Notes: generated by a model from the sequence alone, not told the origin. A stretch of 64,000 bases of DNA from Labilithrix sp. (GCA_019637155.1 JAHBWE010000017.1:211627-275626); one strand, 5' to 3'; numbered from the stretch's first letter, positions 17,103 through 39,331 are shown. Numbers and translations are program-made.

Positions 17103-17762
17103 ATGGTGGAATGGGTCACGGTCGAACGCGCGCGGATCGGAGCGCACGACTTCGTCCTCGCGCGGCGCGGCGACGAGTGGGTCGTGCGCGTCGACGGCCG
17201 CACGCTCATGTCGAGCCGGACCCACCAGTCCGAGATCGAGCTCGCCGCTCGAGCGATCGCGCGCGCCGCCTCACCGCGGCGCGTGCTGATCGGCGGCCTC
17301 GGGCTCGGCTTCACGCTCCGCGCCGCGCTCGATCGCCTCCCCGCGAGCGCGCGCGTCGTCGTGGCCGAGCTCGTGCCGGAGCTCGTCGCGTGGAACCGCG
17401 GCCACCTCGCCGCGGTCCACGCCGGCGCGCTCGACGATCCGCGCGTCGAGGTCGTCACCGGCGACGTCCTCGACGTGCTCGCGAGCGCGCGCGCCGCCTT
17501 CGACGTCGTCGTCCTCGACGTCGACAACGGCCCGGAGGCGCTCTCGCAAGCGGAGAACCGGCGCCTCTACACCGACCGCGGCGTGCGAGCGTGCCGCGAC
17601 GCGCTCGCCGCCGGCGGCGTGCTCGGCGTCTGGTCGGCGGGCCCGAGCGACGCCTACGCCGCGCGCCTCGCGAAGGCCGGCTTCGCGACCGAGGTGGTCC
17701 GCGTCCCGGTGCACCCCGGCTCCCGCGCGCGCCACGTCCTCTTCCTCGGGACGAAGCGATGA
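17103..17762 (+). CDS. Spermidine-synthase-like class I methyltransferase.
   Basis: Motifs VLIGGLGLGFT and DVVVLDVDNGP typical of polyamine aminopropyltransferase-like MTases. Confidence 0.7.
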   Translation: MVEWVTVERARIGAHDFVLARRGDEWVVRVDGRTLMSSRTHQSEIELAARAIARAASPRRVLIGGLGLGFTLRAALDRLPASARVVVAELVPELVAWNRGHLAAVHAGALDDPRVEVVTGDVLDVLASARAAFDVVVLDVDNGPEALSQAENRRLYTDRGVRACRDALAAGGVLGVWSAGPSDAYAARLAKAGFATEVVRVPVHPGSRARHVLFLGTKR

Positions 17763-18237
17763 CACGCTCGCCGCTCGCCCGTACCTCTTCGCATACCGGG
17801 TCAAGTCGCCCGCGATCTCCAGCGTCGGCGTCCAAGCCGCCAGTCGCTCCAGCCTCGACGACGCTCATCGGCGCGGATCCATCCATCGCGGCGTCGGGAG
17901 CTGCGACCGTTGCGCTGGCGGGCTCTCCCCCGCAGCTCTTGAATCGAGGATGGATCCATCGGCGTTGCACACTGGACGGTAAGCCCCCTGCGCGTGAGAC
18001 CACGAGAGGAGCCTCGGAGACAAGGCAGTGCGCGGCGGTCATTGCAATCGCACCCTGCCTACCATCCGCGACCAAGACCCCAAACAGCGGGGCACCAGAT
18101 CGGAGTCGGCGGCGCCGCTCCCGCTCGGCTCTCGCGCCGTTCGCCTCGGACGAACGATGCGACGAGCGCGCACGTACTCGCTCCGACAGCGAAGAGAGAC
18201 CAACCACGCATGCACCTCCGACCGCTAACAGGAACAC
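17763..18237 (-). pseudogene. 5' remnant of a trypsin-like (S1) serine protease gene. It keeps the signal peptide and the His-box region (AIAMTAAHC...IHPRF) and is truncated by the neighbouring gene.
   Basis: GTG start at 18237, then a signal-like MFLLAVGGACVVGLSSL and a TAAHC motif. The sequence runs into the methyltransferase gene with no catalytic Asp/Ser. Codon usage is atypical. Confidence 0.3.
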
Positions 18238-18725
18238 CCCGCATTAGGAATCCGCTGGCATGTTTGACCAAACTCGGCGGCCGGCACTTCCTGTCCGGAC
18301 GCATTCAAGCAGCGAAGCACCTCGCGACCGTCCGAGCACGACGCCGAGACACCACCAGGACAGCAGGCTGCAATGCGCCAGATCGACTCCGCGCACAGCA
18401 ACATGATTCTCGCGTCGGGATCGTAGCCGTACCTGATGCACGACTCGCAGACGCACTTACTATCATCATTGCCGAATACTAAGTCGGGAGAGCATTGTGG
18501 ATCGCAAGATTGACACGCTCCTCCCGCTTTCCCAACGAAAGTGAAGGTTCTATCATCCGCACACGCGGGGACGAGACTCACTGAAGCGAGCAGCGCAAAA
18601 ATGAGCCCCCCCGCGACCCGAGCCGTCCTCAGATTGCCAGCCACGGCAGTCACAGGTCGGCGTGAAGGACCTTCGATCGCGACGCGTTTACCGTTGCGGT
18701 GGGAGCCACGGTACACGAACGCCAT
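18225..18725 (-). CDS. Small secreted cysteine-rich protein (166 aa, 12 Cys in the mature part) with atypical low-GC codon usage.
   Basis: ATG at 18725. Hydrophobic signal ending LVPAC/ADD. Many A/T-ending codons (att, ttt, tca, agt, gat, aga, tta, gta, aat), in contrast to the >90% GC3 of neighbours. Confidence 0.55.
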   Translation of the reverse strand: MAFVYRGSHRNGKRVAIEGPSRRPVTAVAGNLRTARVAGGLIFALLASVSLVPACADDRTFTFVGKAGGACQSCDPQCSPDLVFGNDDSKCVCESCIRYGYDPDARIMLLCAESIWRIAACCPGGVSASCSDGREVLRCLNASGQEVPAAEFGQTCQRIPNAGCSC

Positions 18726-18760
18726 CCCTAGCACGTACCGGCGCGCTCCTGTCGTACATA

Positions 18761-20173
18761 CTACGTGACGCGGGACGGCAGCACCGCCGCGAGGCGCGTC
18801 CGCCAGGCCTCGGACCTCCAGCGATCGGGGAAGCAGCGCGCGAGGAGGTCGAGCATGATCGCGACCGCGGTCGAGGCGCCGGGGGACGCGCCGAGGAGGG
18901 CCGCGATCGAGCCGTCGGCGGCGGTGACGACCTCGGTGCCGAACTTCAGCTCGCCGCGGCCGTCGCCGGTCGCCTTGATGATCTGGACGCGGAGGCCCGC
19001 GATCTGGAGCTCCCAGTCGTCGTCCGCCGCCGCGGGGTAGTAGCGACGCAGGAGCGCCATCCGCTCTTCGACCGAGAGCATCGCCTGCCCCACGAGGTAA
19101 CGCGTGAGATCGAGGTTCTCGAGCCCCGCGCTCATCACCGCGCCGACGTTGTGGACGCCGACCGAGCGGAGCAAGTCGAGCCACGAGCCCTGCTTCAGGA
19201 ACTTCGTCGTGAACCCGGCGTACGGCCCGAAGAGGAGCTCCTGCTCGCCGCCGATCCATCGCGAGTCGAGGTGCGGCACCGACATCGGCGGGGCGCCGAC
19301 CTCCGCACATCCATAGACCTTCGCGTGATGCCGTGCGACGACGGCGCGGTTCGTGCATTTCAGCCATTGCCCACTAACAGGGAACGCGCCATAACCCGCC
19401 GCCTCCGGAATGCCACTTTGCTCCAGGAGCGAAAGCGAATATCCGCCGGCGCCGATGAATACGAACTTCGCGCGGACGGTGCGCTCGGCGCCGGTCGCGA
19501 GGTCGTGGACGTCGACGCACCACGTCTTGCCGTCGCGGCGGAGACCGCGGACCTCGTGCGAGAGGTGCAGCTCGACGTCGGAGCGCGCGGACAGATTGGC
19601 GATCAGCGCGCGGGTCAGCTCTCCAAAGTTGACGTCGGTGCCGTGGAGCACGCGCGTCGCGGCGACCGGCACGTCGCGAGCGCGCCCCTCCATCACGAGC
19701 GGGAGCCACGCCGCGAGCAGGTTCCGGTCCTCGGTCAGCTCGATGCCGGCGAACAGCTTCGTCTCGCGGAGCTGCGCGTGCCGCGCGCGCAGGAACGCGA
19801 CGTCGCCCTCGCCCCACACGAAGCTCATGTGCGGGACGGAGCGGAGGAACCGCGTGAGGTCCGGGAGATCGCCGCGCTTCACGAGCGAGTCCCACAGCTC
19901 GAGGCTCAGCGCGAACTGCGAGGCGATGAGGAGCGCCTTCGCGCAGTCCACCGTGCCGTCGGGGCGCCGCGGCGTGTAGTTCAGCTCGCAATAGCCCGCG
20001 TGGCCGGTGCCGGCGTTGTTCCAGGCGTCGGAGCTCTCCGCCGCGGCGCGGTCGAGCCGCTCGTAGATCCCGACCCGCAACGACGGATCGAGCTCGAGGA
20101 GCAGCGTCCCCAGCGTCGCGCTCATGATCCCTGCGCCGATCAGCGCGACGTCGACCGACTCCCCTTGGCTCAT
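18761..20173 (-). CDS. mqo: Malate:quinone oxidoreductase.
   Basis: N-terminal FAD motif VDVALIGAGIMSATLG. Length and blocks typical of Mqo. ATGA overlap with the downstream gene. Confidence 0.9.
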   Translation of the reverse strand: MSQGESVDVALIGAGIMSATLGTLLLELDPSLRVGIYERLDRAAAESSDAWNNAGTGHAGYCELNYTPRRPDGTVDCAKALLIASQFALSLELWDSLVKRGDLPDLTRFLRSVPHMSFVWGEGDVAFLRARHAQLRETKLFAGIELTEDRNLLAAWLPLVMEGRARDVPVAATRVLHGTDVNFGELTRALIANLSARSDVELHLSHEVRGLRRDGKTWCVDVHDLATGAERTVRAKFVFIGAGGYSLSLLEQSGIPEAAGYGAFPVSGQWLKCTNRAVVARHHAKVYGCAEVGAPPMSVPHLDSRWIGGEQELLFGPYAGFTTKFLKQGSWLDLLRSVGVHNVGAVMSAGLENLDLTRYLVGQAMLSVEERMALLRRYYPAAADDDWELQIAGLRVQIIKATGDGRGELKFGTEVVTAADGSIAALLGASPGASTAVAIMLDLLARCFPDRWRSEAWRTRLAAVLPSRVT

Positions 20174-38152: not shown

Positions 38153-39331
38153 ATGTTTTCATGCTCGCGCGGGTGGATGTGGACGTGCCTTCTTCCTCTC
38201 GCCCTCGCGGGCAGCGCCTGCGTGGCGGACGACGGCGACGCCGACGCCGACGGCGCGGACGAAGGCGCGATCGCGAACGGGACGCGCGAAGAGGGGCGCG
38301 TGCCCGTCGCGTCGTACGGCACCGTGTGCACGGCGACGTTCGTCTCGCGCGCGCGCTGCCTCATCACGGCGGCGCACTGCAGCGGCGGGTCGCTCCAGAT
38401 GGGGCCGGACGTGAACGTCGGGCTCTCCGACCCGCGCCTCAAGACGACGTTCAGCGCGCGCAGCCTCTCGCTCCGCGACTCGACCCCGCTCCCGCGCTAC
38501 GCCGGCGGCTCCTTCGACTGGAGCCCCGCCGACGACATCAAGATCCTCTGGGCGTCGGCCTCCGCGAGCCCCGGTCCGCGCACGGTCGATCACCGGAGCG
38601 ACTACAGGCCGATCCCGCTCGACTTCTCCACCCCCGTGCGGAACGACCCGTACACGATCCACGGCTACGGCTTCAACGTGTGCGACGAGACCGGCGACGG
38701 CGTCCTCCGCTACGGCTTCTTCCGCGGCGGCAACGTCACGAACTCCACCGGCGGCGCGATCCCCGGCGTGCGCGTCGCGAGCACGCCGACGCTCCTTCGC
38801 CTCAGCGGGAGCAACGGCCGCTACGGGATCTGCCAGGGCGACAGCGGCGCGTCGGTGCGCTCGAACCTCGGCGTCCGCGGCGTCATCGGCTGGAGCCTCA
38901 ACGGCTCGAACGACGGCTACGCCACGACCCTCGCGCCCTACCGCCCGTGGTTCGAGCGCAACGTGCTCGGCGCGGGGGCGCGCTTCTGCAACCCGAGCTG
39001 GCCCGTCGTCGTGCGAGGGCCCGGCGCGGTCGACCTCGCGATCGAGGGCGGCGTGGTCGCGCGCCACCGCACGACCGGCGGCGACGTGAACCCGTGGGAC
39101 GCGAACGCGATCGAGTCCGCGGGCGCGACCGGCCTCGCGGCGACGAACGGCGCGGCGGTGCGCGTGCGCGGCAACGATCCGCTCGCGCCGGTGCGCCTCC
39201 GCGTCACGACGCGCGCGAACGTGACGTGGCCCGCCGGCCAGTGCGTCGAGTCGACGAGCACGACCTGCACGGTGACGCTCGATCCCACCGTCGAGGACCG
39301 CACGGAGCTCACGTTCGCGGCGGCGCCCTGA
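38153..39331 (+). CDS. Secreted trypsin-like (S1) serine protease with a C-terminal extension.
   Basis: Signal peptide with lipobox-like LAGSAC. Catalytic His motif CLITAAHC. Catalytic Ser motif CQGDSGAS. Confidence 0.8.
   Translation: MFSCSRGWMWTCLLPLALAGSACVADDGDADADGADEGAIANGTREEGRVPVASYGTVCTATFVSRARCLITAAHCSGGSLQMGPDVNVGLSDPRLKTTFSARSLSLRDSTPLPRYAGGSFDWSPADDIKILWASASASPGPRTVDHRSDYRPIPLDFSTPVRNDPYTIHGYGFNVCDETGDGVLRYGFFRGGNVTNSTGGAIPGVRVASTPTLLRLSGSNGRYGICQGDSGASVRSNLGVRGVIGWSLNGSNDGYATTLAPYRPWFERNVLGAGARFCNPSWPVVVRGPGAVDLAIEGGVVARHRTTGGDVNPWDANAIESAGATGLAATNGAAVRVRGNDPLAPVRLRVTTRANVTWPAGQCVESTSTTCTVTLDPTVEDRTELTFAAAP

Follow-up and report, generated by a model that had tools for sequence, protein, structure and literature searches.

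Bacterial gene pairs formed by a protease and its cognate small inhibitor include those of ecotin, of the Streptomyces subtilisin inhibitor and of the chagasin-like ICP. We analysed a locus of similar layout in a stretch of 64,000 nucleotides from Labilithrix sp., referred to as the window. As in these pairs, the gene of a small exported disulfide-containing protein lies beside that of an exported protease, the two are probably co-translated, and an orphan copy of the small gene outlasts the protease. The locus differs from them in that both partners are lipoproteins and that the small protein resembles no known inhibitor in sequence or fold, inhibition being here putative. Small horizontally acquired islets in high-GC genomes offer a second comparison. 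Such islets and our locus have in common a sharp fall in GC and GC3, the presence of a truncated gene and the location of homologues near IS fragments, but our locus is very small (<1 kb) and has no integrase, tRNA or border repeat. Considering all the data, the best explanation, which we regard as likely, is that the 0.8-1 kb separating mqo from a methyltransferase gene is the leftover of a horizontally acquired gene cluster.

An interval of aberrant composition between two native genes

The interval 17763-18760 is bounded by two convergent native genes, with the stop codon of the methyltransferase gene on one side and that of mqo on the other. Its features and those of its flanks are listed below.

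17103-17762, plus strand: Spermine_synth-like methyltransferase (Pfam PF01564, 1.2e-8; GC3 0.95, host-like), convergent with the protease stub
17763-17922, no strand: 160 bp that separate the protease homology from the methyltransferase stop, GC 0.71
17923-18237, minus strand: 5' stub of a trypsin-like lipoprotein protease, about 105 codons, pseudogene; GTG start at 18237, 13-nt overlap with the small gene
18225-18725, minus strand: small Cys-rich lipoprotein gene, intact, 166 aa; ATG at 18725, stop TAG at 18227-18225
18228-18275, minus strand: C-terminal extension of the small protein, AEFGQTCQRIPNAGCSC, with 3 further Cys; subtype marker (alignment A1)
18276-18557, minus strand: conserved domain of the small protein, about 90 aa, with 10 conserved Cys; C-x2-C; C-x-C-x2-C...YD; W-x5-CPGGVS-x-x-C...CL-x-x-x-G
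18561-18629, minus strand: signal peptide of the small protein, RTARVAGGLIFALLASVSLVPA, then lipobox Cys55 (codon 18563-18561)
18761-20170, minus strand: mqo, malate:quinone oxidoreductase (Pfam Mqo, 2.6e-207; GC3 0.93, host-like)

The preliminary description of this DNA had singled out a low-GC segment of about 1 kb between two core genes. This segment is indeed the lowest-GC kilobase of the 64-kb window (the minimum starts at 17751) and its coordinates are correct. The GC content is 0.637 over the interval and 0.597-0.598 over the small ORF, against 0.712 for the whole window, and the lowest 300-bp value in all 64 kb, 0.573, is found at start 18301 (mean 0.712, sd 0.038). The stretch 17760-18731 is also among the largest in the window without host GC3 signal. 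The GC3 of host genes is 0.946 ± 0.017 with a minimum of 0.879 (n=49), while that of the small ORF is 0.63 and that of the first 105 codons of the protease stub is 0.66 (GC 0.657), both far outside the host range. The small ORF had also been described as rich in A/T-ending codons foreign to this genome, and this was borne out by the counts: 62 of its 166 codons end in A or T, compared with 5% of those in host genes. The small ORF and the stub each have a CAI-like index of 0.21, against 0.706 ± 0.055 and a minimum of 0.58 for the 49 host genes. The GC and codon statistics proposed in the preliminary description as a check thus lie far outside the host range, and the aberrant composition of the interval is confirmed to be far beyond chance.

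A native segment might also show such a composition, if its low GC were that of an intergenic region together with a short, poorly expressed gene of unusual amino-acid content. Other low-GC gaps without host GC3 signal do exist in the window (49577-50235, 52932-53374 and 54149-55402), as this would predict. However, GC3 falls below 0.88 in 0 of the 49 host genes measured, and specific homologues of both ORFs, with the same order and composition, occur in genomes of 60-65% GC. Moreover, the mqo loci of the nearest relatives contain no homologue of either gene. We therefore consider a native origin of the segment to be very improbable.

The flanking mqo gene matches its relatives over its full length. 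Its stop codon is located 35 nt before the ATG of the small gene, on the same strand. Since only these 35 nt separate the two genes and no terminator was seen between them, the small gene is probably transcribed by read-through from mqo. Alternative in-frame GTG starts of the small gene are found at 18716, 18653 and 18644; no convincing ribosome-binding site precedes any of the candidate starts. At the other end of the interval, the 160 bp next to the methyltransferase gene may be either a decayed remnant or host intergenic DNA: they gave no Pfam match in any ORF, no HMM match and no likeness to other loci. A hairpin at 17872-17964 is no more stable than shuffled sequences (z = -1.5), and the Rfam search found nothing.

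The small Cys-rich protein and its family

Both the 166-aa ORF at 18225-18725 and its 13-nt overlap with a GTG-started ORF, reported in the preliminary description, are present. The openness of the small ORF is by itself weak evidence, as 98 of 2000 dinucleotide shuffles reach the same length of open frame. Its content of Cys is more telling, with 15 residues against 6.4 ± 2.2 in shuffles. The protein had been described as secreted, with a signal peptide followed by a 12-Cys domain. The signal peptide stands, while the count does not: the 15 Cys comprise the lipobox residue Cys55 and 14 residues in the mature part. The protein reads ...GGLIFALLASVSLVPA immediately before C55, so that the signal peptide ends in the lipobox-like sequence LVPA followed by Cys, from which we conclude that the small protein is a lipoprotein. 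The Pro at position -2 of the lipobox is atypical, but it is common to the family member P0011 (LIPAC). The Cys55 column is conserved in at least 90% of the 39 sequences of alignment A1, and typical lipoboxes of the homologues at this position are VGC, LSC, GAC and IPAC. The small protein would then be exported by Sec and lipidated at Cys55, and up to seven disulfides may stabilise it in the envelope.

The word-index protein search, Pfam and NCBIfam gave no match to the small ORF, and no match was found in a single-protein scan of metagenome contigs. A motif pattern search returned 9 loci, 4 of them true family members. A whole-library HMMER search against 1.84 billion cluster representatives detected 42 matches at E<=1e-3, of which 41 are family members, and 7 matches at E<=1e-10, the best E being 7.6e-14 (phmmer). 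The top HMMER match, P0001 (2278 aa), is spurious: it is a fasciclin-repeat protein whose repeated matches cover only the signal-peptide/hydrophobic leader region.

The 41 true members are about 100-190 aa long, with a tandem form of 233 aa. Alignments A1 and A2 show that they share a signal peptide with a lipobox Cys and, after it, a domain of some 90 residues. Ten Cys are conserved in this domain, and its motifs are C-x2-C, C-x-C-x2-C...[GA]YD, W-x5-CPGG[VG]S..C and CL-x-x-x-G. Retained in the window protein are the invariant residues C74, C93, C96, L109, C122 and G124 of alignment A1, as well as the near-invariant C71, C78, C91, D102, C111, W116, P123, G125, C130 and C139. We built a family HMM without the window sequence. 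It gives the window protein 91.2 bits (E 1.6e-27) and matches no other of the 804 six-frame ORFs of the window. Whether the Cys-rich ORF is conserved anywhere, on which its standing had been made to depend, is answered by these 41 members and by this score obtained without self. Its sequence thus places the small protein in an unnamed, uncharacterised family (P0002-P0042, e.g. MET0594176.1, a 'hypothetical protein' of a Polyangiaceae MAG), with which it shares the lipobox, the 10 Cys, C-x-C-x2-C..YD and CPGGVS. We regard the small ORF as a real, conserved gene. The window copy differs from its relatives by the high GC of its host (0.71), by the missing upstream cluster genes and by the truncated protease.

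The closest relative found lies at 2563-2991 of L096. It is 46% identical to the window protein (E 2e-35) and has the same C-terminal tail, ending in ...EYERTCRPIANGGCAC. The two proteins belong to a subtype defined by an 'ACC-PGG' doublet and by the C-terminal tail E[FY]..TC..I.N.GC.C. The L096 member shares with the window protein not only the subtype-specific ACC and this tail but also a place upstream of a trypsin-like gene, with overlapping frames. The C-terminal extension is present in full in the L096 member, P0011, P0019 and P0034, and in part (F/Y-G-x-TC only) in P0010 and P0024. No paralogue of the small gene, of the protease stub or of the other cluster genes was found in the window.

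Comparison of the family with Pfam, NCBIfam and PADLOC revealed nothing meaningful, Pfam giving only four scattered single-member matches (E 0.012-0.083), and the family profile had no match in the PDB at E<=10. Across these four resources, no likeness in sequence or fold to a known inhibitor, toxin or Cys-rich scaffold was seen. The small domain is related neither to the protease's Cys-rich tail nor to the 261-aa protein of the cluster described below. An AlphaFold2 model calculated from a 39-sequence alignment is beta-rich, with a pLDDT of 83-94 in the domain core. Both structure searches rank the fungal proteins PAFC (PDB 6trm) and bubble protein (PDB 1uoy) first, which is a lead rather than a result; these top-ranked neighbours are likewise small, beta-rich and disulfide-locked. 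A weak PDB match of the small ORF (Leishmania, E 7e-4, three co-linear pieces) had raised the possibility of a decayed class I fumarate hydratase beside mqo. We dropped this reading because the family profile has no PDB match and the ORF is a member of another, well-defined family.

The protease remnant and the gene cluster on other contigs

The ORF that overlaps the small gene had been described as a 5' fragment of an S1 protease. It begins with a lipobox-like N-terminus (FLLAVGGAC). TAAHC, the motif of the catalytic His, is found at 18039-18025 and RRWIHPRF at 17961-17941, IHPRF lying 25 residues after TAAHC. T[AS]AHC has just two occurrences in the window when all six frames are translated, one in the stub and one in the S1 protease that starts at 38153. 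The latter (38153-39331) is a genuine S1 protease (Pfam Trypsin 6.7e-9), but only six residues around TAAHC match the stub in BLASTP. The stub itself gave no Pfam Trypsin match, no PDB match and no word-index match, even at E<=10.

We built a clade profile from four protease sequences neighbouring family genes and searched it against the 804 six-frame ORFs of the window. The ORF containing the stub (-_17458_18243) is the top match with an E of 1.3e-5, while the next best reaches 0.26 and the window's own S1 protease only 3.4. The alignment covers residues 54-105 of the stub and profile positions 88-145 only. In BLASTP, the stub and the L096 protease are 40% identical over 58 aa (E 9e-7), with GVLVADGRQGAIAMTAAHC...VQRRWIHPRF of the stub aligned with GLAVANTATGTLILTAAHC...VVRRWVHPRF of the L096 protease. 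Relative to the latter, about 10 aa are deleted in the stub between the His motif and HPRF. Alignment A4 retains as invariants G53, T67, A69, H70, C71, H96, P97, R98 and F99. The stub lies below the Pfam threshold of family S1 and has no Ser195, but it is recovered by the clade-specific profile. Its homology is visible only via the gene context, because the generic Pfam, PDB and word-index tests gave none. These matches, together with the presence of TAAHC and IHPRF, uphold its description as a 5' fragment of an S1 protease.

Within family S1 (PF00089), the stub resembles a divergent lipoprotein clade (L099 7391-8542, L096 1500-2612) by TAAHC, by RRW[IV]HPRF, by its lipobox-like N-terminus and by lying in the same position and on the same strand with respect to the small gene. 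It differs from this clade in having only about 105 of about 375 codons, without the Ser195 motif or the Cys-rich tail, and in the deletion of about 10 aa. Of the catalytic triad, the His is present and the Asp is only arguable (PDAAM against YDVAL), while the GDSG/Ser195 region and the Cys-rich tail are absent in every frame. Since the catalytic Ser is lost, the protease must be dead. By its sequence, the stub is a true 5' remnant of the cluster's trypsin-like protease and a pseudogene. The preliminary description had the protease cut off by the methyltransferase gene, which is not the case: homology fades after about residue 105, near 17923, some 160 bp before the methyltransferase stop. The truncation is therefore due to a deletion and not to a literal cut by this gene. 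The preliminary description also advised looking for an intact paralogous pair, for example beside the S1 protease at 38153; no family match is found there, and this protease belongs to a different clade and has a host-like composition.

The cluster from which the stub would derive is fullest in L099/L100. It comprises four lipoprotein genes in one direction, often overlapping, in the order: 1525-aa protein, 261-aa Cys-rich protein, small protein and 383-aa trypsin-like protein. The 1525-aa protein of L099 gives weak matches to PKD, CarboxypepD_reg and DUF7305, and all four L099 proteins begin with lipoprotein signal peptides. In general terms, the large PKD/CarboxypepD_reg-like protein of the cluster measures about 1500 aa, the Cys-rich one about 260 aa and the small one about 120-145 aa; the protease has about 370-380 aa and a Cys-rich tail. 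L096/L094 show the order large-protein homologue, small protein and 371-aa trypsin-like ORF. In L097/L098/L089, a 278-aa homologue of the 261-aa protein is followed by the small protein and by a 214-aa trypsin-like ORF without the Ser region, which abuts a PIN gene; the small gene is intact. L082 has the Cys-rich tail of a trypsin-like protease directly upstream of the small gene; in L083 and L084/85, the C-terminal part of the large protein is retained upstream of it. With 26.9, 27.3 and 22.4 bits, the three neighbouring proteases that were scanned exceed the Pfam Trypsin cut-off of 20.6. The small gene adjoins the protease in only 5 of about 12 independent contexts. The pairing is thus frequent but not obligatory.

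Only two pieces of the cluster are retained in the window, the intact small gene and about 105 codons from the start of the protease gene. The order, the strand and the overlapping start of the stub are the same as in L096 and L098.

The loss of the partner genes raises the possibility that both ORFs are dead, the interval being the decaying junk of an old insertion in which the small ORF is still open only for lack of time. The small gene has no clear ribosome-binding site, and its openness is only marginally unusual in the shuffles mentioned above. Its GC3 of 0.63 is also the lowest among the family members examined, as AT-biased decay would give. Against this, the small ORF has kept all invariant and near-invariant positions of the family, including the conserved Cys and the lipobox, and reaches 91 bits without self, while the adjacent stub is visibly decayed, with its deletion of about 10 aa and the loss of homology after about 105 codons. 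Moreover, L097/L098/L089 independently retain an intact small gene beside a truncated protease. We hold it unlikely that both ORFs are dead.

Probable acquisition of the locus and possible role of the small protein

Homologous gene pairs sit on contigs of 60-68% GC. The small gene and the protease have a GC of 0.606 and 0.679 and a GC3 of 0.69 and 0.72, respectively, in L096; in L099 the values are 0.56 and 0.61 for GC, and 0.65 and 0.64 for GC3. The composition of the window ORFs matches that of the homologous pairs, or of donors of about 60-65% GC. Those carriers that can be placed, at least two contigs, belong to the Polyangiaceae: a Polyangiaceae MAG is the source of P0024 and its neighbour, and the rpoC of L097 clusters at 90% identity or more with sequences from MAGs of Polyangiaceae and Myxococcales. 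The cluster is typical of lower-GC (about 60-65%) Polyangiaceae-like myxobacteria. The best mqo matches of the window host, at 75-76%, are those of a Labilithrix MAG and of a Kofleriaceae MAG. The window host is thus a myxobacterium of the same broad group as the carriers, much richer in GC.

The cluster looks foreign in other hosts too, since fragments of IS66 and rve are found beside family members in L084 and L096, and the cluster genes of L097 have a GC3 of 0.64-0.68 against 0.85 for its rpoC. At the borders of our interval, no mobility gene, integrase, IS, tRNA, target-site duplication or terminal or direct repeat was found, which counts against transfer. The mqo loci of relatives (L001-L007) contain neither gene, although synteny is not conserved there and the nearest mqo is only 75-76% identical. 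The nearest relative, L001, is without the methyltransferase gene and has a different gene order around mqo. Its mqo-to-p137 interval contains a catalase and a small membrane protein instead, showing that this interval is variable. These data are best read as a horizontal acquisition after which most of the cluster was deleted. This agrees with the preliminary description, which saw in the segment a decayed horizontally acquired secreted effector/protease module; composition, family membership and stub homology all support it.

The window locus thus provides a tidy case, of an ordinary kind, of a horizontal-transfer scar of less than one kilobase in which a single gene has survived: a 'hypothetical' low-GC ORF appears as a real gene and its neighbour as a pseudogene. 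It also points to an undescribed, recurrent all-lipoprotein cluster in Polyangia-type myxobacteria, in which a large PKD/CarboxypepD_reg protein and a divergent S1 protease accompany two Cys-rich proteins. The Cys-rich members of the cluster have no Pfam or NCBIfam model and no solved-structure neighbour. At present, these observations are of interest mainly for annotators and for specialists in myxobacterial surface proteins.

In complete clusters, the small protein could be the protease's stoichiometric partner, the most plausible role being that of an inhibitor or a regulator. A partner role, as inhibitor, regulator or co-factor, is the most economical guess because the small gene is adjacent to the protease gene in the 5 contexts counted above, often with overlapping frames. 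If the small protein is indeed a protease partner or inhibitor, it would represent a new scaffold for bacterial protease regulation. The window copy would be the orphan of such a pair. Extending this idea, the family might constitute a new class of fold for inhibitors or immunity proteins that are anchored in the envelope and directed at a clade of lipoprotein trypsin-like proteases that myxobacteria deploy at their surface or exchange between cells, the window and L097-type copies being orphan immunity genes against the proteases of neighbours. We consider this proposal rather unlikely.

Alternatively, the small protein may be a stand-alone secreted or surface weapon, antimicrobial or antifungal like bubble protein and PAFC, the protease serving only to process it or being unrelated. 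The rank of these two small disulfide-rich beta proteins at the top of both structure searches points in this direction, as do the membership of the host in a predatory group and the survival of the small gene without an intact protease here and in L097/L098. We think such a weapon rather unlikely. In two lineages, that of the window and that of L097/L098/L089, the small gene is intact and the protease next to it truncated. This pattern fits a role without the protease, either as an orphan inhibitor or immunity protein or, equally, as a stand-alone activity.

The complete cluster and its relatives with a short protease

The cluster that encodes a large 1525-aa protein, a 261-aa Cys-rich protein, the small Cys-rich protein and a trypsin-like protease is complete on contig L099, and its protease was also located on three contigs of a Polyangiaceae-type lineage (L097, L098 and L089).

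L099 1612-8542: complete cluster, four lipoprotein genes
L097 7330-7971; L098 938-1582; L089 1659-2300: cluster protease copies, L097-type lineage

All four proteins of the L099 cluster open with lipoprotein signal peptides (IVVGC, TVGC, LSC and VVAC). The 1525-aa protein matched PKD, CarboxypepD_reg and DUF7305, all weakly, and nothing else, and no NCBIfam model was found for it. Downstream of the cluster lie a sensor kinase and a sigma-54 activator.

In the L097-type lineage the protease is just 214 aa long, lacks the Ser195 region and is abutted by a PIN-domain gene on the opposite strand. The small gene upstream of it is intact and identical across contigs of several samples. On L097, the GC3 of the cluster genes is 0.64-0.68, while the contig's rpoC reaches 0.85.

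Loci of other family members

L087 8001-8702: P0016, a family member, a two-domain tandem form of the small protein
L084 209-628 and 4277-4705; L096 83-364: IS66 and rve transposase fragments

The second domain of P0016 runs on in a different frame (L087 8359-8613), which indicates a frameshift. On L084 and L096, the IS66 and rve transposase fragments lie no more than a few kb from the family members, and at L084/85 an upstream homologue of the large protein is split into three frames.

Surroundings of the foreign segment

The closest relative found is a Labilithrix MAG. There, the stretch from mqo to the homologue of p137 (L001 9531-12302) has neither the methyltransferase nor the foreign segment; it encodes a small membrane protein along with a large catalase. 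Its contents thus differ from those of the window, showing that the mqo-p137 interval is variable. At its end, the protease stub of the window overlaps with an inverted repeat.

17872-17905 / 17931-17964: imperfect inverted repeat, 34 nt, core GGATCCATCC / GGATGGATCC

Its fold energy is ordinary (z about -1.5), and an Rfam search with it returned no match.

The S1 protease and other gaps in the window

38153-39331, + strand: genuine S1 protease (Pfam Trypsin, 6.7e-9)
49932-50002, - strand: tRNA-Ser(GCT), inside gap 49577-50235
54811-55028: tandem repeats, units of 15, 30 and 51 nt, consensus AGCACTCGCGGCCTG..., within gap 54149-55402

The preliminary description had proposed looking for an intact paralogous pair of protease and Cys-rich protein elsewhere in the genome, for instance at 38153; no Cys-rich family gene adjoins the S1 protease there. 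This protease has a host-like GC3 of 0.97 and falls outside the protease clade of the cluster (clade HMM, E 3.4).

The gap at 49577-50235, which houses the sole tRNA of the window, is low in GC and lacks the host GC3 signal. The largest other stretch of the window without host coding signal, 54149-55402, is partly occupied by the tandem repeats, whose translation gives PERSR-like repeats.
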